Source: Candidatus Doudnabacteria bacterium
Lineage (GTDB): Bacteria; Patescibacteriota; JAQUNI01
DNA length: 64,000 bases
Direction of reading: 5' to 3'
Assembly (NCBI GenBank): GCA_041644975.1
Contig: JBAZQX010000007.1
Location: forward strand, 1,906 to 65,905
Below the pieces are notes generated by a model. It ran no database searches. It was not told the origin of the DNA and was given only the letters and a program-made list of their open reading frames with translations. Position numbers and translations under genes: made by a program. Position 1 is the first letter of the stretch. Each line of letters starts with the position of its first letter. Positions 2 to 63,810 of this stretch are shown here, one piece after another.

Positions 2-658
2 AAGGCTGGCTGTTTCCAGCCTTATTCCGCCGCTACGCTCAACCATCTGCTCATTAAAATCAAAAAGAGCGTGCCACCCTATGTTCGCATTATCCGTTTG
101 ATCCGCGATATTCCGAGCAACTCAATCATCGCGGGCAATAAAATCACGAATCTGCGCCAGATTTTAAAACAGAATAACGCGCAATGCCGTTGCATCCGCT
201 GCCGTGAAGCCAAAGACGCGCCCTTGGGCAAAATCTATCTGCACATATTAAAATATCCCGCCTCTTCCGGCACTGAATATTATTTAAGCTATGAAAATAA
301 AGACCAAACCACGCTTTACGCGCACCTCCGCTTGCGTTTTCCATCGCTCAAATCAACATTCCAAAACTGCGCCATTATCCGCGAGGTGCATACTTACGGT
401 CAAGTGGCGTCGCTTAAAACTCAAAATCAGTCTGCCACGCAACACCATGGTTTGGGCAAAAAATTAATCCAAAAAGCGGAAAATCTAGCCTCTCAAAATG
501 GGTATAAAAAAATAATGGTGATTTCAGGAGTCGGCGTGAGGGAATATTATTGGAAACTAGGGTATGGAATTGTTGGCTATGGGTATATGATGAAAAAATT
601 ACATCCCGATCGTCATTGCTTCGTCGTCCCTCGACAAGCTCGGGACTCCTCGCAATGA
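2..658 (+). CDS. ELP3-like radical SAM/GNAT protein (tRNA wobble-uridine modification family), 5'-truncated by the window edge; the last ~20 codons run into a palindromic repeat
   Basis: The frame is open from position 2. The C-terminal motif ISGVGVREYYWKLGYGIVGYGYMMKKL matches the conserved ELP3 GNAT C-terminus (ISGVGTRNYYRKIGY..PYMVKML). The extra tail overlaps repeat 611-660. Confidence 0.6.
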   Translation, partial: KAGCFQPYSAATLNHLLIKIKKSVPPYVRIIRLIRDIPSNSIIAGNKITNLRQILKQNNAQCRCIRCREAKDAPLGKIYLHILKYPASSGTEYYLSYENKDQTTLYAHLRLRFPSLKSTFQNCAIIREVHTYGQVASLKTQNQSATQHHGLGKKLIQKAENLASQNGYKKIMVISGVGVREYYWKLGYGIVGYGYMMKKLHPDRHCFVVPRQARDSSQ

Positions 659-663
659 CGGGA

Positions 664-6273: not shown

Positions 6274-6446
6274 ATTAATTTGATTAAAAAAATTCCTTTT
6301 CCCAGGACGAAACCGCTCATGGCTACGCCAGATCTTCAGACAACTGATTTTTTCGCCCAAAATCCCTTACAATTTAATCGCCGAGTCCGCCAATTCGGCG
6401 GATAAACTCCGCGAGGCGAACCCAAACTGCTTGCAAATTCCTTACT

Positions 6447-6466
6447 GGTGCCCGGGGCGGGACTCG
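6447..6466 (-). repeat. Partial duplicate of the tRNA-Leu 3' end (17 nt identical, followed by CCA): att-site-like direct repeat
   Basis: gtgcccggggcgggactcg here matches the tRNA-Leu 3' end at 6623-6640. In this copy the reverse complement ends ...CGAGTCCCGCCCCGGGCACCA. Confidence 0.55.
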
Positions 6467-6622
6467 CCCCGTCGCTAAAGCTCCTTGAAACCTTGCGGTT
6501 TCAATGCTTCCACATCGGGGAAACTACCGTTTCCCCGACCCCTTTCCCGGGTTCTCGTCCCTATTACTTTAAACCTTGTATTTTTGAAAAAAACAAACAG
6601 ACACAAAGCGATATCTTCTTTG

Positions 6623-6707
6623 TGCCCGGGGCGGGACTCGAACCCGCAAGGTCTCGCGACCACAAGATTTTAAGTCTTGCGTGTATACCAGTTCCACCAC
6701 CCGGGCA
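6623..6707 (-). tRNA. tRNA-Leu(TAA), class II with long variable arm
   Basis: The reverse complement folds as GCCCGGG acceptor, anticodon loop CTTAAAA, variable arm tggtcgcgagacc and T-arm GGGTTCGAGTCCC. CCA is not encoded. Confidence 0.85.
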
Positions 6708-6714
6708 AACCCTC

Positions 6715-6830
6715 CGTCGTTGCGAGGAGCGACCAAAAGGAGCGACGAAGCCCGCCCGCTCACAAGCTTCGCTTCAGGCGAGGCGGGCGGGCTTCGCTCG
6801 GGCTTTAAGGCCCGAGCTCGCAACGACAAA
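6715..6830. repeat. GC-rich palindromic repeat element (family B core CGCTTCAGGCGAGGCGGGCGGG inside a cgtcgttgcgagg...cctcgcaacgac inverted repeat)
   Basis: Inverted termini and a shared GC-rich core that recurs at six other sites in the window. Confidence 0.7.
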
Positions 6831-6957: not shown

Positions 6958-7030
6958 AGGCCTAGGTGGGATTTGCACCCACGAATCACGGTTTTGCAGA
7001 CCGTTGCGTTAACTACTTCGCCACTAGGCC
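6958..7030 (-). tRNA. tRNA-Cys(GCA)
   Basis: GGCCTAG acceptor, anticodon loop CTGCAAA, T-arm GTGGGTGCAAATCCCAC. Length 73 nt. Confidence 0.85.
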
Positions 7031-7273
7031 ATATTCAATTTTCAGCAAATCCTTCTGTTGGTGAGTTTTATAGAATTTCTCCATTTCAATTGCCTCACTA
7101 CGGGTCGGAAATTCCTTATAACCTAACAACCGCCACGGACAATATGCTTTAGTTGATTTTACCTTACCGCTGTTATGTCGTTTAAATCTAACTTTCACAT
7201 TTTCCGTACTGCCTACATACAAATTATTATTTTTTAGGCTAAGTAAAAAATATACATAATACATAGAAATCAT
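7013..7273 (-). CDS. GIY-YIG nuclease family protein (small UPF0213/YhbQ-like)
   Basis: YYVYFLLSLKNNNLYVGST...RFKRHNSGKVKSTKAY...EAIEMEKFYK matches the GIY-YIG motifs. The 3' end overlaps the tRNA-Cys 5' end by 18 nt on the same strand. Confidence 0.8.
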   Translation of the reverse strand: MISMYYVYFLLSLKNNNLYVGSTENVKVRFKRHNSGKVKSTKAYCPWRLLGYKEFPTRSEAIEMEKFYKTHQQKDLLKIEYGLVAK

Positions 7274-10823: not shown

Positions 10824-10895
10824 TATATTGAACCAATGACAATATAACTTTATTGTATCCCATTAGTTCAATACTGTAAAAAAACATATTGACGG

Positions 10896-11231
10896 TGCCG
10901 GGGGAGAGAATCGGACTCTCGACACGATGATTTTCCATTGCTCTCTCGGATTTCTCCGAGGATTGGACTATCTCTTCTCCTCACCTAGAAATAACAAATT
11001 CTCTTTAGGTGAGGGGCTGGGCGCTTAATGCAGGATTATTATTGGGATTCACCCGCTAGTCTCTACACCTTCTCCTCTAATTAAACCCATAAAGGAGCTT
11101 GGCTCGGGATTACCATATCCCTTTGAATAAAAGGATTTAGGCTTCCCCGAATTCACCCAGTTTGCGCTTCCATATCGCTATGAAAGGGACCGAAAATTCA
11201 GTCATCTGCTCTACCACTGAGCTACCCCGGC
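10896..11231 (-). tRNA. tRNA-Phe(GAA) interrupted in the anticodon loop by a ~264-nt group I intron
   Basis: 5' exon GCCGGGGTAGCTCAGTGGTAGAGCAGATGACT; 3' exon GAAAATCATCGTGTCGAGAGTCCGATTCTCTCCCCCGGCA. Joined, they give a canonical Phe tRNA with GATGA/TCATC anticodon stem, loop CTGAAAA and A73. Confidence 0.7.
10936..11199 (-). ncRNA. Group I intron within tRNA-Phe (boundaries +/-3 nt because of GAA repeats at both junctions)
   Basis: Contains an R-like element (gtagAGACTAgcgg) and an S-like element (aagAGATAGTCCaatcc) that can pair as P7. The 5' exon ends in U and the intron ends in G. Confidence 0.6.
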
Positions 11232-11236
11232 AAGTT

Positions 11237-11365
11237 GGTAATCAGTAATTAGTAATTGGTAATTAGGGTAAACCCCGCACCGTCCGCCTTTGGCGGACTG
11301 GTGCGTGGGTAAACTCGCCCTTTGGGCGAGAAATTCCTGATTACTAGTTACTGATTACCGATTAC
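11237..11365. repeat. Family G element: inverted arms of degenerate taat-cag/tag/tgg heptamer-like repeats around a GC hairpin (ccgcaccgtccgcctttggcggactggtgcg)
   Basis: ggtaatcagtaattagtaattggtaattag ... ctgattactagttactgattaccgattactaattac. The second copy is at 60340-60442. Confidence 0.65.
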
Positions 11366-13104
11366 TAATTACTATTTCCTAACCCATTAACATAAACATA
11401 ATATCCTAAACTACCCAGGTTGTAAACCTTTAAATTGTAGTATGCCCCTCCTTTTCCCCAATCTTTCATAAACCCCCAGCCATTCCAAGAAAGAACATTT
11501 AAATTTTGGGAGATTTTACTTTCAGGATGCTCGTATGTTCCTTCCAAAGCGACCAGTTCCGATTTCTGATCCTTATTGAAATCTCCCGCCTCAATCTCTA
11601 AAAGAGGTTTGTCTAAAATTGACGAGCCCCAGATTAAATCAAGCTTTTCTTTTTTCAAATTATATAAAAACAAGTGGCTTCCCCAATGCTCTTTGTTTTC
11701 CGCATTCGCGAGGGGCGAGTTCTCCGCGTAATCCCCCTTTTTCCATAGGGCTAAAGCAAGGTCGGGTTTAGCGTCGCCGTTAAAATCGCCAACCGTATAA
11801 TCATTAACCACCCAAGCGGGATCGCTTTCCCAAATCTTTGTTTCATTTTGAAAAACTTTAACCAAGCCTTGATCCAAAATAATCTTTTCTTCTTTAGTGT
11901 CCTGATCTAAATCTTGATTAAGGAGAGAAGGAATCCCCGCAAAGACGACCCCGCTTTTCAAGCCCAAACTTGTTTCTTCTTGGTACGCTCCATTTTGAAA
12001 AGAAAAGGAAGGCTGTTCGTCTAAAGCAATGCCCAACATTTTAAGGAGCCTATTCTGTTCGCTTGGAGAAACAAACTGGGGCTGACTGTAATCAAAAATT
12101 TTGACGGGTAAAAAATTCAGCTCTACTACGCCATCGCGGTCCAGATAGATGTCCGCGACCATCCCCTCCCGCGTCTCCTCGCTCCACATCTGGTCAAAAA
12201 CAAAATTGCCTAAAGAATAGATAATATACTTGCCTTTATATTTTTCCACGGTCTGAAACCAATGCGGATGATGGCCGATCACTAAATCCGCGCCCGCGTC
12301 AATCGCTTGGCGGGCAAAAGCGATTTGCCCCGCGTTGGGAGCGCGCTTATACTCTGTGCCCGCGTGCATAGAAATAATTACCAAATCCGCTTCTTTTTTC
12401 GCCTTTCCTAAATCACTTTTTAAATCCTCTGTGTTCATTATCGCCGCGCCGGCGTTATTCTCCTTGGCTTCGGTGTTGCCAGCGTAAGTATAAGCTAAGA
12501 AGGCAATTTTAAGATTATTTCTTTCCACTATTGCCGCTTGATGCGCCGTTTCGCGATTTAATCCAGCGCCAACGCCTTGAATGCCCTCTTGCTCCAATAA
12601 TTCCAAAGTTTTTTTAAGACCTTTATCCCCTTGGTTCATAATATGGTTATTGGCTAGGGATAAAACATCAAAACCGACCTTGGTCAGCGCTCCCGCGCAT
12701 TCCGGATCCGCGCGAAAAACCATACTGGGAGTACGCACGGGCTCACCAGCAAGGAGGGGCGACTCTAAATTGCCGAAAGTGATATCGGCATTTTGCAAAA
12801 ATTGCCCCATTTTCCGGAAAGGATATTGATAATCATTATATTCCACCATCTTTTGGCCTACATTGCGCGAAAGCATCATATCGCCCACTGCCACGAGATG
12901 GACCAAAGGCTTCGCGGGAACAGGAAGACTCGGCTTTTCTAACACTGCTTCACTTTCCTCTTTGACTTCCGCGGACAGAGGCAATCTTTTTCGGCTCTCT
13001 TTAAAGTAAGTGAACGGCTCGTTAATAGGCAAAATTCTAAAAAGCGCCACCCCAATGATGACAATAAGCGGAACTATAAACCAGAATAAAATTTTGGAAA
13101 ACAT
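11365..13104 (-). CDS. CapA family protein (poly-gamma-glutamate/capsule biosynthesis metallophosphatase domain) with C-terminal repeat domain
   Basis: N-terminal TM segment. VAVGDMM...LVIGHHPHWFQ metallophosphatase motifs. C-terminal FG-GAP-like GDFNGD repeats. Confidence 0.8.
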   Translation of the reverse strand: MFSKILFWFIVPLIVIIGVALFRILPINEPFTYFKESRKRLPLSAEVKEESEAVLEKPSLPVPAKPLVHLVAVGDMMLSRNVGQKMVEYNDYQYPFRKMGQFLQNADITFGNLESPLLAGEPVRTPSMVFRADPECAGALTKVGFDVLSLANNHIMNQGDKGLKKTLELLEQEGIQGVGAGLNRETAHQAAIVERNNLKIAFLAYTYAGNTEAKENNAGAAIMNTEDLKSDLGKAKKEADLVIISMHAGTEYKRAPNAGQIAFARQAIDAGADLVIGHHPHWFQTVEKYKGKYIIYSLGNFVFDQMWSEETREGMVADIYLDRDGVVELNFLPVKIFDYSQPQFVSPSEQNRLLKMLGIALDEQPSFSFQNGAYQEETSLGLKSGVVFAGIPSLLNQDLDQDTKEEKIILDQGLVKVFQNETKIWESDPAWVVNDYTVGDFNGDAKPDLALALWKKGDYAENSPLANAENKEHWGSHLFLYNLKKEKLDLIWGSSILDKPLLEIEAGDFNKDQKSELVALEGTYEHPESKISQNLNVLSWNGWGFMKDWGKGGAYYNLKVYNLGSLGYYVYVNGLGNSN

Positions 13105-13354
13105 AAAAAATAAATCAAAAATCAGATATCCCCGGCCCGCCCCGTAGTAGAGAATCTCACTACAGGGCCCGCCTCGCGTTAAATATAGTCTATCAATAAT
13201 TACTCATTTATATCTCTTGAAATAACATCAATTGGCAGACAAGTTAAAGGCGAGCGGGGCAGGCAAAATGCAAAATGACGGATTAAAATTCAAAAAGAAT
13301 TAAAATTTTTACATTTTACATTTTCATTTTGATTTTTGATTTTTACATTTTGAT

Positions 13355-15694: not shown

Positions 15695-15876
15695 ATTTTT
15701 TTTATTTTATTTAAAACATTTAATGCCGCGAAGCGTTGCAATGTAGAGACGTTGCGATGCAACGTCTCTACAATCATTATAATCTCTCTACCATTTAAAG
15801 GCAACGAAAAAGGGATTATTTAAAATTTTGATTTCCTCTCCCTTAAGAATTATGGTAGAATAATAATATCTTTACC

Positions 15877-16038
15877 TTGAATTACGAAATTAGAGCACAA
15901 GTAACCCACCCCCGCCCGCCTCGCCTGAAGCGAAGCTTGTGAGCGGGCAGGCCTTCCCTCCTCTTCAAGAGGCGAGGGGGCATTAATTCCCCCCTGACAA
16001 AGTGATTACATAATCTAATCGCACATTTCGTAATTCAA
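15877..16038. repeat. MITE-like element with GAATTACGAAAT / ATTTCGTAATTC terminal inverted repeats and a family B GC-rich core
   Basis: Termini at 15877-15890 and 16025-16038. The core is cccgcccgcctcgcctgaagcg. Confidence 0.7.
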
Positions 16039-16071
16039 GAATCTTTATATTATTTAAAGACAACAAAACAA

Positions 16072-16604: not shown

Positions 16605-16747
16605 TGTCATTGCGAGCAGTTCCTTGCACTCCTCCTGCACTGAGCGGGAAGGCAAGAGGGGAAGGGAGTGGCCCTCCCCCTGCCCGAGAGGGAGATGGAG
16701 GGGGAGGGAGAAGAAAGACCCCGCCCCGCTTTGCTCGCAACGACGGT
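16605..16747. repeat. Family A-type palindromic element (GTCATTGCGAG...CTCGCAACGAC) with G/C-rich interior
   Basis: Inverted termini. The interior is ggaagggagtggccctccccc. Confidence 0.65.
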
Positions 16748-18424: not shown

Positions 18425-18525
18425 GGTTCAATTCTCCCTGCCCACTCAAGCGCTTCGCCCGCCCGCAACGACTGCGTCTTGCGCTGTCGGGCGAGGCTTC
18501 AGGCGAGGCGGGCGGGTTGAATTGA
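18425..18525. repeat. Family B GC-rich repeat copy
   Basis: gcttcgcccgcccgcaacg...gcttcaggcgaggcgggcggg. Confidence 0.6.
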
Positions 18526-18931: not shown

Positions 18932-18987
18932 TAAATAAAAAGTATTTCCGCCTTGGACATAAATAATATCCTTATCGCCAAGCAGCC

Positions 18988-19022
18988 TCCTTAAGGATGT
19001 CGTTCGCGAACGACATCCTTAA
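18988..19022. repeat. 35-bp perfect palindrome TCCTTAAGGATGTCGTTCGCGAACGACATCCTTAA (family E), copy 1, inside the peptidase E gene
   Basis: Exact palindrome; identical copy at 19195-19229. Confidence 0.85.
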
Positions 19023-19194
19023 TTCATCCTCGTTCTTGCCCTCAATATCAATTTCTTGCACATGGAATCCAACATCAGCCATTATTTGGCTGTCTTTTTT
19101 AACATAAGAAATGTCATCCTCGGCTTTTGAAGCAGTAGTAATATGGGCGAGTTTTATTTGATTAGCTGGTCTAGGGAGAAGTTTCAAAATTTCT

Positions 19195-19229
19195 TCCTTA
19201 AGGATGTCGTTCGCGAACGACATCCTTAA
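19195..19229. repeat. 35-bp perfect palindrome (family E), copy 2, read through in frame
   Basis: Identical to copy 1. Confidence 0.85.
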
Positions 19230-19381
19230 CATTTTCATACCAGCAGAGGTTAACAGTAGTGTTTTCATAATCTAATGCGAAACTATTTTTCAAAATATTA
19301 ATTGGCTTGCATTGAGGCTCCACAGGGCTATCGCCACTATGGAGCCAACAAATTTAGCTAAGTATGAAGCTGGTGCGCCGG

Positions 19382-23477: not shown

Positions 23478-23945
23478 GTGGATCCACCAAAAGGCGGAAC
23501 TTCGGGTATTACCGGCTCTTCTGACGTGACGGGCGATTATCTTCTTATAAACGTAAGAATTGATGTTCCCACCCAGCGAGCGGATTTCCCGCACTAGGCG
23601 AGTTCTAATGCATTTTCTTCTTCATTAGAATGGCTCCTTTCCCCATACTCGGGGTATTATGAGCCAGCTGACTTCTGACGCTGCGTTAGTTTTATTATAT
23701 AACTCGATTGAGTTAAACCGCAACATCAGATCTCCCGGGGTCAGTTTAAAAACTTTTCCTAACATCCCAAAGAAGCTTTTATATAATTTTCCCTATGCTC
23801 ACCACCCTACCATAGGTCAATTAACTTCTTTAATTTTTGGGCTGCTATTTGTTTCCGGATCCTCTGCTAACATCCTCGCGGATGTTAACTATCCTTCAAC
23901 TACGCTCTAAACGAGATTAGAGGGACGGATTTTAACCGTCTGGTT
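23478..23945 (-). other. ~430-470-nt insertion in the 16S rRNA between the GTAC(A)C 1395 block and the CGCCCGTCA 1400 block
   Basis: The conserved blocks are ~490 nt apart here versus fewer than 100 in canonical 16S. No sense-strand ORF of 60 aa or more. Confidence 0.6.
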
Positions 23946-24443
23946 TTTAAACCTGCCCGGCGCAGATTTTGTGAGTACAAGACCTGGGAACGTATTCACC
24001 GCGACATGGCTGATTCGCGGTTACTAGCGATTCCGGCTTCATGAGGTCGAGTTGCAGACCTCAATCCGAACTGGGGGTGCTTTTGATGGGATTAGCTATA
24101 GCGTTACCGCGTCGCGTCCCATTGTTACACCCATTGTAGCACGTGTGTCGCCCAGGGCATCAAAGGCCATGCTGACTTGACGTCGTCCCCACCTTCCTCC
24201 GACTATCTGCCGGCAGTCTCGCGTGACATAGTAACACGCGACAGGGGTTGCGTTCATTCCCGGACTTAACCGAACATCTCACGACATGAACTGACGACAG
24301 CCATGCAGCACCTGATCCCAAGGTTCCCCCCATAAAAAATCCAATTTTTAATTTTAAATTTTTAATTGAATTCCTTATGGGGGCACATCTCAGTTTCCTA
24401 AGATCTCCTTGAGCGTCTTGCCCTGGTAAGGTTCCTCGCTTAC

Positions 24444-24477
<34 letters not shown>

Positions 24478-24489
24478 AGGTCCCCGTCT

Positions 24490-24521
<32 letters not shown>

Positions 24522-24954
24522 TCCCAGGCGGGGCACTTAACGCGTTAGCTTACGACACTGAAGGGGTCGAGCCTCCAATGCCTAGTGCCCATCGTTTACA
24601 GCGTGGACTACTGGGATATCTAACCCCATTCGCTCCCCACGCTTTCGTCCTATGAGCGTCAGAATCGTTCTAGTAAGCTGCCTTCGCTATTGGTGTTCCT
24701 GCCGATATTAACGCATATCACTACTACACCGGCAGTTCCGCTTACTTCTCCCGACCTCTAGTCTTGAAAGTATCCAACCCTTTCCCTTGGTTAAGCCAAG
24801 GTCTTTAAGGTTAGACTTTTCAGACCGCCTAGGGACGCTTTACGCCCAATAAATCCGGATAACGCTTGGACCACTCGAATTACCGCGACTGCTGGCACGA
24901 GTTTAGTCGGTCCTTATTCGTAGGGTACCTTCAAACGTGCCTCGCTACCGCTCG

Positions 24955-25200
24955 GCACTAAATATAAATTTACAATTTTTAATTTTAAATTTTAATTCAA
25001 ATCCAAATTTTAAAATTGATTAAAAATTTCCGCCTGAAGAGCGGATCGGCTCTTCGACTCTGAAGACTCATTAGAGTTCGTTCAGAGCCTGAACAACCTA
25101 AACGACCTAGGGCTGAAAAAATTTAGAATTAAAAATTTACAGAGTGCTGAACGTAAGTGAAGCACGTCTTATTCCCCTATAAAAGCAGTTTACACTGAAG
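24955..25200 (-). other. ~240-nt AT-rich insertion in the 16S rRNA between the 357 and 515 conserved blocks (V3 region)
   Basis: Spacing of ~400 nt versus ~160 nt in canonical 16S. Confidence 0.5.
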
Positions 25201-25743
25201 AACAGCTTCTTCCTGCACGCGGCGTCGCTCCTTCACCCTTTTGGGGCATTGAGGAAGATTCTCGACTGCAGCCTCCCGTAGGAGTCAGGGCAGTGTTTCA
25301 GTCCCCGTGTGCGAGGGCATCCTCTTAGACCTCGTAACCGTCATAGCCTTGGTGAGCCTTTACCCCACCAACTAGCTGATAGTCCGCAGGCCCTTCTTGA
25401 AGCGATAAATCATTTACCATAACTAATGAATAGCTATGGCACATCGGGAATTAGTCCGCCTTTCGGCGAATTATGCCCGTCTTCAAGGTAGGTTACCAAC
25501 GTGTTACTCACCCGTTTGCCACTGTCCGCCTAACTTTTCTTGCGAAAAGTTTGGCGGACCGTTGACTTGCATGCCTTATCCACGCCGCCAGCGTTCATCC
25601 TGAGCTAGGATCAAACTCTCAAAAAAGATAATCAGCAATTAGCTCATAAAAGCTAGATTACTAATTATATAAATAGACGTTCCTATCACTATTTAATTGT
25701 CAAAGTTCAAAAATATTTTTGCTCTTAAACTAGAGCATAATTT

Positions 25744-25880: not shown

Positions 25881-25936
25881 GTCATTACGAGGGATCCCCC
25901 GCCTTTTATAAAAGGTAAGGGGCTCCTCGCAATGAC
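25881..25936. repeat. Short family A palindromic element (GTCATTACGAGGG...CCTCGCAATGAC)
   Basis: Inverted termini around ccttttataaaagg. Confidence 0.6.
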
Positions 25937-36295: not shown

Positions 36296-36550
36296 AATTT
36301 TGAATTACCTTAACATATCGTCATTGCGAGGGAGGCACCTTAGTGCCGACCAAAGCCCGCCCGCCTCGCCTGAAGCCGCGCCCGCCATGCTAGCCGCAAG
36401 GCGTTGCGGGCGGGCGAAGCGATGGCGGGCAGGCAATCTCATAAATCTGTATAAATACAGCTCGATGAGATTGCGGAGCCTGTCCCGAGCGGAAGCGAGG
36501 GATCGGGCTTGACGCCCTCCTCGCAATGACAAAATGAATATCGAAAATTA
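36296..36550. repeat. Composite MITE-like element: family A termini (CGTCATTGCGAGG...CCTCGCAATGAC) enclosing a family B GC-rich module
   Basis: The ORFs called inside it on both strands (36300-36512 and 36305-36532) are repeat artefacts. Confidence 0.75.
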
Positions 36551-37183: not shown

Positions 37184-37193
37184 TTTATTACCC

Positions 37194-37400
37194 TGAATTA
37201 CGAAATGTGCGATTAGATTCTAACCCTTTTTTTTTATCAGGGGGGAAAATTTAACCCCTCTCTAATCTCCCCTTGTCCTCCTACTTCCGCCCGGGGCGGA
37301 CTTCGGCGGGACACGGTCCTCCTTCGCCCCTCACTTGCCAAACAAGTAAGGGGCTTCGGCAGGACACGGTCAGGGGAGGTTTATCTACACTAAATATACC
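37194..37400. repeat. MITE-like element with GAATTACGAAAT terminus carrying the family C module (AACCCCTCTCTAATCTCCCCTTGTC) and direct repeats of gggcggacttcggcgggacacggtcc / gggcttcggcaggacacggtc
   Basis: Terminus at 37194-37208 and the family C motif at 37250. Confidence 0.65.
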
Positions 37401-43319: not shown

Positions 43320-43418
43320 CCTGAGAAGAATCGAACTTCTATCTAGGGCTTAGGCCCTGCACCAGAGCAAAGCTCGGTACAGGGTAAAAGTCCCTTGTTC
43401 CCCGCCCGCCTGACTCGT
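43320..43418 (-). pseudogene. Degenerate tRNA-like sequence, partial duplicate of tRNA-Arg
   Basis: The minus strand has CAGGGCCTAAGCCCTAGATAGAAGTTCGATTCTTCTCAGGGGCA with a shortened anticodon loop (relative to tRNA-Arg) and an unpaired 5' acceptor. Confidence 0.3.
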
Positions 43419-43419
43419 C

Positions 43420-43494
43420 TGGTGCCCTCATCTGGAATCGGACCAGAATCTAGGGCTTAGGAGTCCCTTGTTCTATCCATTGAACTATGAGGGC
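43420..43494 (-). tRNA. tRNA-Arg(CCT), CCA encoded
   Basis: GCCCTCA/TGAGGGC acceptor, A73, anticodon loop CTCCTAA, T-arm TCTGGTCCGATTCCAGA. Confidence 0.85.
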
Positions 43495-43652
43495 GTCAGG
43501 CGAGTCGGGCGGGTATCCGCTTAAGCTACAGGGGCAAAAACAAATTAAAAATAAAAAATTTAAAATTACAAATATATACAAATTATATTCTTTAATTCAT
43601 TGCTTGTAAATTTTTCTGATGCTAGAATGAGTGGAATTACTAAAAATAGAAA

Positions 43653-45305: not shown

Positions 45306-45600
45306 AAAAATGTTCCACGTGGAACATTTTTAATTTCCTTAAATTACGAAACTCCCTCCCCTTGCCTCCCGCGGAGTAATCTAACTCCCTCCCTGACAAG
45401 GGAGGGGAAGGCCTGCCCGCCATCGCTTCGCCTGCCCGCAACGCCTTGCGGCTAGCATGGCGGGCGTGGCTTCAGGCGAGGCGGGCGGGGGAGGGTTAAA
45501 AGGATTTATTCTCTCTCTTACCTGAATTAAACCCCTCTCTAATCTCCCCTTGTCAGGGGAGAAGTTTACCCTCCTCTAGGTAAGGGGGAATATATTGGAA
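45306..45600. repeat. Left flanking composite repeat of the TrmB cassette: 16-bp palindrome TGTTCCACGTGGAACA, then a MITE-like element with ATTACGAAACTCCC terminus, CTCCCTCCCTGACAAGGGAGGG and family C modules, and a nested family B insertion (45415-45495)
   Basis: Direct-repeat partner at 47285-47551. The nested GC-rich segment is absent from the partner. Confidence 0.7.
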
Positions 45601-47194: not shown

Positions 47195-47284
47195 TTTCTA
47201 GATAAAAAATTGCCTGAAAATGGGGTTTTAAAAAATATGACCATCATCAAAACTAGATGATGGTTTTTTATTGTAATAATGACC

Positions 47285-47551
47285 TTATATTACGAAACTC
47301 ACTCCCCCCGCCTCCCGCGGGGAAATCTAACTCCCTCCCTGACAAGGGAGGGAAGGGGAGGGTTAAAAGAATTTATTCTTTCTCTTACTTGAATTAAACC
47401 CCTCTCTAATCTCCCCTTGTCAGGGGAGAGGTTTTCCCCTCCCTTGGCGAAGTAATAATCCCAATAATACTTATAAAAAGAGTAGAGACAGGTTTTAAAC
47501 CTGTCTCTACTCTTTAAAAACGATTTAAATGTTCCACGTGGAACATTTTTT
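47285..47551. repeat. Right flanking composite repeat of the TrmB cassette (same modules as 45306-45600, lacking the nested family B insert; the 16-bp palindrome TGTTCCACGTGGAACA sits at the distal end)
   Basis: tattacgaaactcactcc...ctaactccctccctgacaagggaggg...aaacccctctctaatctccccttgtcaggggag...aaatgttccacgtggaacatttttt. Confidence 0.7.
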
Positions 47552-48617: not shown

Positions 48618-48744
48618 TACCTCCTGATTGATTAAACACTATAATCAAAGTACCACTCTCAATTTTTAAAGAGAGAATTAAGTATAGCATAAATATCGTA
48701 AAATGTCAAATAAATGTAGCAACTCAATATCCTGAAAACACTTT

Positions 48745-48952
48745 GTACCTTAACATTTTGTCATTGCGAGGAGGGCTTATAGTCAGATCCCTCGCTTCCG
48801 CTCGGGACAGGCTCCGCAATCTCATCGAGCTGTTATTCATACAGATTTAGGAGATTGCCTGCCCGCCATCGCTTCGCTTCAGGCGAGGCGGGCGGGCTTC
48901 GGTCGGCATTAGATGCCTCCCTCGCAATGACGATACATTTCGTAATTCAAGG
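48745..48952. repeat. Composite family A element (GTCATTGCGAGGAGGGC...CCTCGCAATGACGATACATTTCGTAATTCAAGG) with a nested family B core
   Basis: More than 90% identical over ~100 nt to the copies at 55858-55990 and 63590-63730. Confidence 0.75.
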
Positions 48953-49004
48953 CTTTGTAAGTATTTCATAAGAAGTTTAAGATTCACCCTTACCTCTTGA
49001 TTCT

Positions 49005-53642: not shown

Positions 53643-53685
53643 ACACTGTCTCGCTTCGCGAGATCTCGTAAAGCGATGATCATTT
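53643..53685. repeat. Family D-like hairpin (tgtctcgcttcgcgagatctcg)
   Basis: Resembles tgtctcgctgcgcgagatcccg of copies D1-D3. Confidence 0.45.
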
Positions 53686-53817
53686 TGCATTTTGCCTGCC
53701 CCGCTCGCCTTTAACTTGTCTAGTAATTGATGTTATTTAATAGATATAAATAAGTAATTATTGGTAGACTATATTTAACGCGAGGCGGGCCGGGGATTTT
53801 TACATTTTACATTTTCT

Positions 53818-55824: not shown

Positions 55825-55840
55825 TTTAAAAAGTATGATT

Positions 55841-56016
55841 TTGAATTACGAAATGCGTCGTCATTGCGAGGAGGGCTTTTAGTCAGATCCCTCGCTTCCG
55901 CTCGGGACAGGCTCCGCAATCTCATCGAGCTGTATTTATATAGATTTAGGAGATTGCTTCGGTCGGCATCAGATGCCTCCCTCGCTCATAGACAAAATGA
56001 ATTTCGTAATTCGAGG
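55841..56016. repeat. Complete family A MITE-like element with TGAATTACGAAAT / ATTTCGTAATTCGA terminal inverted repeats
   Basis: ttgaattacgaaatgcgtcgtcattgcgaggagggc...gcctccctcgctcatagacaaaatgaatttcgtaattcgagg. ORF 55864-56136 is a repeat artefact. Confidence 0.8.
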
Positions 56017-60322: not shown

Positions 60323-60339
60323 ATTTCTTTCAGTAATCA

Positions 60340-60442
60340 GTAATTAGTAATTGGTAATTGGTAATTTTGGCACCTCGAGCCAATAATTTCCTGATTACTG
60401 ATTACTGATTACCGATTACCGATTACTTACAGATTACTAATT
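60340..60442. repeat. Family G element (inverted taatcag/taattag/taattgg-type arms around ggcacctcgagcc), upstream of rpsA
   Basis: cagtaatcagtaattagtaattggtaattggtaatt...cctgattactgattactgattaccgattaccgattac. Confidence 0.65.
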
Positions 60443-63515: not shown

Positions 63516-63569
63516 GGGTTCCCTCCTTTGAAAACACGGTTAGTAAGAAAGAGCCATTTTATAACCTTA

Positions 63570-63743
63570 CCTCGAATTCGAAATTCGTTTTGTCATTGCG
63601 AGGAGGGCGTCAAGCCCGATCCCTCGCTTCCGCTCGGGACAGGCTCCGCAATCTCATCGAGCTGTTATTCATACAGATTTAGGAGATTGCTTCGGTCGGC
63701 ATCAAATGCCTCCCTCGCAATGACGATACATTCCGTAATTCAC
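63570..63743. repeat. Complete family A MITE-like element (CGAATTCGAAATTCG...TTCCGTAATTCAC termini, GTCATTGCGAGGAGGGC...CCTCGCAATGACG inner inverted repeat)
   Basis: Near-identical to 48745-48952 and 55841-56016. ORF 63474-63782 is partly an artefact. Confidence 0.8.
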
Positions 63744-63810
63744 AGAACCTTAAAATCCTGCGATGTGAATTATTTATCATAATAGACAATTTTATTTTTG
63801 TCAACAAAAT

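Follow-up and report, generated by a model that had tools for sequence, protein, structure and literature searches.

Miniature inverted-repeat transposable elements (MITEs) derived from the IS982 family of insertion sequences (ISs) have already been described in Cardinium, where MITECca01 is short, non-coding and multi-copy, carries inverted-repeat ends that match those of a resident IS982-family element (ISCca4), from which it derives, and is presumed to be mobilised in trans (PMC9769881). Members of the family are 845–1282 bp long with inverted repeats of 11–32 bp and direct repeats of 2–10 bp; their ends start with AC, or with CC in 5 of 69 catalogued members, and IS1187 has 7-bp direct repeats (PMC7335449). 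Repetitive extragenic palindromic (REP) sequences and their paired hairpin form, the REPINs, are also extragenic and multi-copy, with two inverted arms that make a long hairpin and no target-site duplication (PMC3116915, PMC3337134). Here we describe repeats in a 64-kb stretch of DNA (the window) from Candidatus Doudnabacteria, a bacterium of the candidate phyla radiation (CPR, Patescibacteria), and in particular a 236-nt element located between the genes for RNase HII and a methyltransferase (36308–36543; Table 1). This flagged sequence is, with good confidence, a three-layer nested non-autonomous mobile element, in which an IS982 MITE shell encloses a palindrome (family A) that in turn encloses a GC-rich palindromic module (module B). 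The window corresponds to positions 1920–65919 of a 77.9-kb metagenome contig (ENA ERZ27249422, k141_699790). It carries housekeeping genes (gyrA, clpP, RNase HII, ksgA, tilS, nusA, a 16S rRNA gene and five tRNA genes), and an RNase HII identical to that of the window is assigned at NCBI to a Candidatus Doudnabacteria bacterium; the window is therefore chromosomal DNA.

The outer terminus of the element had been proposed in a first-pass annotation of this DNA, made from the sequence alone. It proved to be real and over-represented (GAATTACGAAAT, 7 occurrences in the window against 1.04 expected), with a true end lying 4 nt further out. Alignment of the copies showed that similarity continues over these 4 nt, giving a 16-bp terminal inverted repeat, CCTTGAATTACGAAAT, which is matched at 16 of 16 positions at 15875 and at 48952. 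Directly outside this boundary, perfect 7-bp direct repeats were found at three of the five window copies (15875, 48748 and 63570), and a fourth such repeat, ATATATA, was found slightly beyond the end of the window on the same contig. For any one flanking pair in this sequence, a 7-mer match by chance has a probability of 1.6e-4. Homologues of two proteins gave access to orthologous loci: RNase HII (90%, 76% and 63% identity) and a metallo-beta-lactamase (MBL)-fold hydrolase (92%, 85% and 64%). The RNase HII–methyltransferase spacer contained no element in three related lineages (L007, L008–L011 and L012), where it consists of ∼100–136 nt of AT-rich DNA; in the closest relative, TAACTTA abutting AAATTAAAA is the counterpart of the right-hand junction in the window. 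The tilS–ftsH spacer was without the 63570 copy in three relatives (L257, L258 and L259), and the clpP–gyrA spacer without the 55839 copy in a fourth (L260). All three orthologous sites tested were therefore empty in relatives, with 63–92% identity between nearby proteins. The window copies, at 166–236 nt, are short and have no transposase gene; their terminal repeats and the length of their duplication are those of the parental element described below, and their insertion is polymorphic, as in a MITE. Among the repeat families of the window, only this outer-terminus family is shown to be a MITE family.

In public metagenome contigs, CCTTGAATTACGAAAT was found at no fewer than 119 loci, and the following counts refer to the matches listed. 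Two inverted termini bounded 56 elements, most of them 33–400 nt in length and inserted at AT-rich targets, with exact flanking repeats of 7 bp in 17 cases, 6 bp in 4 and 8 bp in 3. Forty-eight MITEs with this terminus fell into 20 unrelated interior clusters; the proposal that a single terminus is used with different interiors thus holds at the metagenome scale as well as in the window. Four copies were ∼1 kb long (L062, 1024 bp; L063, 965 bp; L089, 1000 bp; and L041, 994 bp and cut by a contig end). L089 is flanked by a perfect 7-bp duplication, TTGTAGA, and L062 and L063 each have a single open reading frame (ORF) of 267–283 aa. The transposase encoded by these partner elements matches Pfam DDE_Tnp_1_3 (PF13612; 8.6e-32, 110.7 bits against a cut-off of 27), and D107, D184 and E230 are invariant in 12 homologues. 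It has more than 2,000 relatives, most of which were found on ∼1-kb contigs, since a multi-copy repeat is expected to assemble in this way. All relatives with a name at NCBI come from CPR bacteria, some listed as 'IS982 family transposase' of Candidatus Kuenenbacteria (63% identical) and others assigned to Parcubacteria and Patescibacteria. In Parcubacteria bacterium Athens1014_10 (L255), the transposase gene lies between the same termini; the element measures 1014 bp and is flanked by TCCTAAA as a perfect 7-bp duplication. CCTTGAATTACGAAAT is the terminus of this element and of L062, L063 and L089 alike. Transposase-bearing elements with the same terminal inverted repeats are thus present in other genomes. 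Given the matching termini, the 7-bp duplications and the DDE transposase in the full-size copies, we read the shell of the flagged element as a MITE whose parent is an insertion sequence of the IS982 family. An IS481-like rve gene in the relative L007 was also considered as a partner and rejected, as its ends are unrelated.

At 965–1024 bp, with 16-bp inverted repeats, 7-bp direct repeats and CC ends, the partner elements, each with one DDE transposase, lie inside the published ranges of the IS982 family for size and repeat lengths. Their direct repeats are like those of IS1187, whereas their CC start is rare in the family, most members of which start with AC; the text of the IS982 review makes no mention of CPR or Patescibacteria (PMC7335449). 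The MITEs of the window share with MITECca01 their shortness, lack of coding capacity and multiple copies, together with ends that match an IS982-family IS. Unlike MITECca01, they occur in a free-living CPR bacterium and have other palindromic repeat families as interiors; their terminal repeat is found on at least 20 unrelated interiors, compared with one conserved interior in MITECca01, and no parental IS was seen within the 78-kb contig (PMC9769881). A search of the available literature turned up no description of MITEs in CPR and returned an unrelated paper.

The flagged copy is one of four A-type shell copies in the window (36308, 48748, 55839 and 63570) and is 80–93% identical to the others. 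The family A palindrome inside its shell has all four blocks of the cross-phylum hairpin described below (GTCATTGCGAG, GCAATCTC, GAGATTGCTTyG and CTCGCAATGAC). Of the putative target-site duplication, the copy TGAATTA has as its counterpart in the empty site of L007 the sequence TAACTTA, located directly after the RNase HII stop codon. As single-stranded DNA, the element has a predicted fold of −67.6 kcal/mol (z = −6.8 against shuffles), and a very stable branched hairpin would be expected from it as single-stranded DNA or RNA. It is situated upstream of the methyltransferase gene's own AT-rich leader and promoter-like site, and contains no terminator-like site. Rfam gave no match over the elements at the gathering score, and a relaxed E-value gave merely sub-threshold generic hairpin matches. 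We saw no sign of a function for the flagged element beyond its own propagation.

Family A extends well beyond this organism. A scan of one genome per species with the pattern GTCATTGCGAG-N30-60-CTCGCAATGAC returned at least 120 loci; hosts among the matches listed include Bradyrhizobium, Sphingomonas, Novosphingobium, Rickettsiales and Legionellales, Alpha-, Delta- and Gammaproteobacteria, Chloroflexota, Bacteroidota (Mucilaginibacter and Chitinophagaceae), Planctomycetota (Pirellulales), Cyanobacteria (Microcoleus) and CPR (Berkelbacteria and Saccharibacteria). The 123 copies listed are 59–82 nt long, with no two alike in sequence. They follow the consensus nCGTCATTGCGAG-variable-CGAAGCAATCC-loop-GGATTGCTTCG-variable-CTCGCAATGACGn, and one arm often bears a small branch hairpin of unrelated sequence. 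RNAalifold applied to 80 copies recovered the invariant outer stem alone. No flanking direct repeat was present in 119 of the 123 copies, and the palindrome stops within 1–2 nt of its termini, the outermost pair covarying as C..G or T..A. The pair is thus no 2-bp 'CG' duplication bordering A, since the T..A variants keep complementarity and not identity. Because the palindrome is without a duplication and common to many phyla, its termini are not MITE ends; the recently active MITE-like system inferred in the first-pass annotation is accordingly borne out for the outer-terminus family, by its duplications, empty sites and partner, and not for family A.

In the window, family A stands alone without outer termini at four sites (those starting at 612, 6716, 16606 and 25881), and among the metagenome matches listed it lies inside 5 of the 56 MITEs, in three shells (L016/L080, L032 and L129). 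In an orthologous spacer of Bradyrhizobiaceae, Tardiphaga has an A hairpin that Bradyrhizobium lacks. A separate comparison of an orthologous A hairpin in Bradyrhizobium (L163 4480–4637 and L220 1332–1411) revealed that the 3' arm in one genome contains an additional GC-rich palindrome of 36 nt; nesting of palindromes inside A is not peculiar to CPR, and it resembles the behaviour of module B.

All-against-all BLASTP of the 120 A-bearing loci listed identified no recurrent neighbour genes beyond generic families, and tblastn of the same loci with a Y1 transposase query gave two short fragments, both in L231. No gene for a REP-associated tyrosine transposase (RAYT) was present in the 78-kb contig, and none was found next to A. 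Rfam has no family for A, and A-type copies of Novosphingobium and Methylosinus in PLSDB have no annotation over them. Literature searches by exact A strings and hairpin-encoded peptides returned unrelated primers and names only, and A may go by another name. Family A is thus a discrete element of REPIN-like form, sharing the extragenic location, two inverted arms, long hairpin, multiple copies and lack of target-site duplication of REPs and REPINs (PMC3116915, PMC3337134). In contrast to these, its sequence is conserved across many phyla, whereas REPIN sequences are described, in the available part of that literature, as lineage-specific and vertically inherited; A also differs in having no GTAG-type 5' motif, no associated RAYT found and variable branch hairpins in its arms. 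As a tentative suggestion, which we consider possible rather than probable, A may be a mobile palindrome not described before, which inserts without target-site duplication, has no dedicated transposase close by, takes up further small palindromes in its arms (in CPR and Bradyrhizobium alike), spreads horizontally across bacteria and hitch-hikes in the IS982-type MITEs of CPR, in a three-layer 'Russian doll' with a separate mechanism for each layer.

Module B is a palindrome of 38–40 nt and ∼80% G+C in a genome whose spacers are AT-rich. Searches with CGCTTCAGGCGAGGCGGGCGGG (≤3 mismatches) placed it at 6770, 15911, 18495, 36356, 43492, 45468 and 48875; the copies listed in the first-pass annotation were in place, except that the one at 2515–2625 is merely loosely similar. 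It has three unrelated hosts (the A hairpin, a family C element and the MITE at 15875) and also stands alone at 18438–18516. In the 48748 and 36308 copies, a 38-nt B palindrome lies between GAGATTGC and TTCGG, where the 63570 and 55839 copies have none. The 36308 copy has in addition a second, 39-nt palindrome (B2) in the loop of the first (B1), and the same B1[B2] unit recurs in the family C element at 45337 and is missing from its 88%-identical sister. These direct comparisons of sister copies bear out the nesting of elements that had been proposed. B leaves no duplication, and no copy was found in the other 1.6 Mb of DNA from fetched loci, B being seen in this contig only. Elhai and colleagues reportedly described in 2008 cyanobacterial small dispersed repeats, tiny palindromes nested in one another and in other repeats, with no mobilising enzyme known; these would be like module B in their nesting and differ from it in sequence and host. 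In a further observation, tRNA-Arg(CCT) (43420–43494) lies between GC-rich inverted arms of ∼20 nt, CCCGCCCGCCTGACTCG.../...CGTCAGGCGAGTCGGGCGGG (43398–43513), which are like those of module B; the arms may form a leader–trailer stem, or the tRNA gene may itself lie within a palindrome of the B kind.

Under our nested reading of the flagged sequence, a DDE transposase acting in trans would bind both ends of the shell and integrate it by a staggered cut, which at AT-rich sites would produce the 7-bp target-site duplication; we infer that the shell was mobilised in trans in this particular genome as well. Most likely, a minimal palindromic MITE, made of two terminal repeats with a few bases between them, gained an A hairpin at its centre and the composite was then amplified in this lineage, after which B, and later B2, would have entered or been exchanged between some copies, an order of events that we infer. 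B would insert or be lost without duplication in the arms or loops of other hairpins, itself included. For the movement of both A and B we favour, with low confidence, a hairpin-dependent single-strand mechanism. The flagged copy would have landed on the TAA stop codon of RNase HII and duplicated it, so that both flanking genes would have remained intact.

Several observations weigh against this account. The best NCBIfam model for the partner transposase, IS982, scored 126.6 bits, just below its 130-bit cut-off. The readable 78-kb contig of this genome contains no transposase gene, and for this reason current mobility and a partner in the same genome are suppositions. The duplication of the flagged copy is imperfect (5/7) and its ends are either degenerate or shortened, which leaves its boundaries uncertain by a few bases; because the last 4–6 residues of RNase HII differ from those of relatives, the element end may sit slightly inside the RNase HII gene, with the left boundary a few bases off. 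The 55839 copy has no target-site duplication. The fetched loci include no 'empty shell' sister MITE without A, so the entry of A into the shell is a step that we reconstruct rather than observe. Lastly, the presence or absence of B could reflect precise palindrome deletion rather than insertion.

The missing empty shell also fits an alternative in which only the IS982-type shell transposes, and the interiors and the differences in A and B arise from recombination, gene conversion, palindrome deletion or foldback duplication in replication. Long palindromes are prone to deletion, and B occupies the same position in the 36308 and 48748 copies, which represent sub-lineages differing by a marker (GGGCGTCAAGCCC versus GGGCTTATAGTCA), a shared position that fits gene conversion as well as site-specific insertion. 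This explanation is nevertheless unlikely given that A occurs solo with sharp, identical ends at the four window sites and at the ≥120 loci, in phyla in which this terminal repeat was not seen, that it is found in at least four unrelated shells (those of the window copies, L016/L080, L032 and L129) and varies between presence and absence at the orthologous Bradyrhizobiaceae spacer, and that B has three unrelated hosts. Much less probable is that the entire system is a REP/REPIN population moved by a single-copy RAYT (a Y1 transposase of the HUH type), with the outer termini as another REP. The elements are indeed extragenic and strongly hairpin-forming, the A core has no duplication, and a Y1_Tnp (PF01797) gene lies beside a degenerate IS982-type terminus (L255 1–828) in the same Parcubacteria genome that has the intact IS. 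HUH elements leave no duplications, however, and the 7-bp duplications at the outer termini, with the DDE transposase in the full-size copies, rule out a REPIN reading of the shell; the 78-kb contig has no Y1 gene, Y1-like sequence in the 120 A-bearing loci listed is confined to the two short fragments in L231, and the distribution of A over many phyla is at odds with the lineage specificity described, in the part of the literature available, for REPINs. A further alternative, in which the flagged sequence serves an RNase HII–methyltransferase operon as a conserved structured RNA or as a terminator, attenuator or small RNA with a regulatory role, is in keeping with the very stable predicted fold and the position between two co-directional genes, but is already contradicted by the element-free spacers of three related lineages, by copies in either orientation between divergent, convergent and co-directional genes, and by the lack of an Rfam match or terminator-like site in the flagged element.

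The repeats of the window as a whole are less pervasive than first suggested. The first-pass annotation had them occupying most intergenic regions; self-BLAST detected a within-window repeat in 19 of 52 spacers of ≥50 nt, amounting to 2.1 kb of the ∼15.1 kb of spacer and 2.3 kb (3.6%) of the window. Nor do the eight families form one interrelated system: three of the layers, namely A, B and the outer terminal inverted repeat, behave separately from one another, and several other families are hairpins in 2–4 copies; families C, E, F and H and the CCCCGTTAGA family are real, with just 2–4 copies apiece. The seven family A copies were all found where they had been placed, and GTCATTGCGAGG (≤1 mismatch) occurs 12 times in the window against 0.14 expected, the right A terminus of the 55841 copy being degenerate and variant termini occurring at 16605 and 6715. 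Many of the ORFs within repeats had been called artefacts, and the ORFs there have no Pfam match. In terms of density, the 64-kb window contains 14 A termini and 7 terminal-repeat cores, compared with 4 and 3 in 111 kb of its relatives, and the repeat expansion is lineage-specific. In the trmB–wzy spacer, which contains the 45337 composite in the window, the element of one relative (L009/L010) belongs to family A and ends in ATTTCATAATTC.

Further repeats were noted alongside these. A 113-nt repeat at 13166–13278 and 53680–53791, in opposite orientations and with an AT-rich interior and GC-rich ends (GGCCCGCCTCGCG.../...GCGAGCGGGGCAGGC), is an additional small element family missing from the earlier list. 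The arms of family G (heptamer-like units TAATCAG, TAATTAG and TAATTGG) are found at 11234–11383 and 60330–60427, their 27-nt cores 100% identical, and two copies of a perfect palindrome of 32 nt, TTAAGGATGTCGTTCGCGAACGACATCCTTAA, lie 207 nt from each other (18991–19022 and 19198–19229) inside a 98-aa ORF (18972–19268). In an independent Logan assembly of the same organism (SRR8449827), contigs L002, L004 and L006 end ∼20–45 nt past the start of the TCATTGCGAG repeat; these repeats fragment assemblies of this genome.

Table 1. Coordinates of the flagged element, its parts and the other copies in the window.
Feature	Position	Strand	Remarks
Flagged composite MITE, 236 nt	36308..36543	-	Shell ends CCTTAACAT... 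and ...AATGAATATCG, a variant/degenerate form of the CCTTGAATTACGAAAT terminal inverted repeat
Putative target-site duplication, copy 1, TGAATTA	36301..36307		5/7 match to 36544-36550; tentative
Putative target-site duplication, copy 2, AAAATTA	36544..36550		Includes RNase HII stop codon (36548-36550, minus strand)
Family A palindrome inside shell, GTCATTGCGAGG...CCTCGCAATGAC	36320..36530		Exact termini
Module B: GC-rich palindrome B1 with second palindrome B2 in its loop	36356..36432	-	B2 at 36376-36414
MITE with same terminal inverted repeats, different interior (module B and other hairpins)	15875..16040	-	Ends CCTTGAATTACGAAAT and ATTTCGTAATTCAAGA
Perfect 7-bp duplication of 15875 copy, ATCTTTA	15868-15874 and 16041-16047		
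A-type MITE, B inserted at 48859-48896	48748..48952	+	Right terminal inverted repeat 16/16 against IS terminus
Perfect 7-bp duplication of 48748 copy, CTTTGTA	48741-48747 and 48953-48959		
A-type MITE without B	55839..56016	+	Right A terminus degenerate
A-type MITE without B	63570..63745	+	Perfect 7-bp duplication AACCTTA at 63563-63569 and 63746-63752
Stand-alone short A-type hairpin between convergent genes	612..659		No outer terminal inverted repeat, no duplication; provides stop codon of ORF 71-658
Stand-alone A-type hairpin, GTCGTTGCGAGG...GCTCGCAACGAC	6716..6827		Module B central (6751-6791); adjoins tRNA-Leu
Stand-alone A-type hairpin	16606..16744		Variant termini
Minimal stand-alone A-type hairpin, 56 nt	25881..25936		Upstream of 16S rRNA gene
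Family C composite	45337..45580	+	One terminus-like end CCTTAAATTACGAAAC; B1[B2] at 45413-45489
Sister family C composite without B	47283..47447	+	88% identical to 45337 copy, clean gap at B position
One-ended MITE remnant, CCCTGAATTACGAAATGTGCGATTAGATT...	37191..37277	+	25 nt in common with end of 15875-16040 copy

A group I intron (Rfam RF00028, 92.9 bits, 10944–11209) splits a tRNA gene on the minus strand (10860–11290), and joining the surrounding exons gave tRNA-Phe(GAA) in ARAGORN when the boundaries were allowed to shift by ∼5 nt. The 16S rRNA gene (23919–25626) is 1708 nt long compared with a 1533-nt model, with ∼175 nt of inserted sequence. A duplicate of the 3' end of tRNA-Leu(TAA) lies at a distance of 174 nt (6441–6466 and 6615–6640; 88% identity; family D12) and could have been left by an old integration at this tRNA gene. 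An 86-aa GIY-YIG ORF overlaps tRNA-Cys (7013–7273), and an 86-aa GIY-YIG ORF is found at another locus, adjoining ftsH, in a relative (L257 2852–3112); this ORF may be a mobile homing-endonuclease-like gene.

Genomes of CPR bacteria are small, and in this one a lineage-specific MITE burst can be tied to an identifiable IS982-family transposase, with a defined 16-bp terminus and a 7-bp duplication. Its repeats break short-read assemblies of the same organism and create spurious ORFs, and the CCTTGAATTACGAAAT terminus offers a simple annotation probe for such elements in CPR assemblies. If it has indeed not been described, the cross-phylum A palindrome would offer a tractable example of a tiny element passing between phyla with no obvious enzyme of its own.

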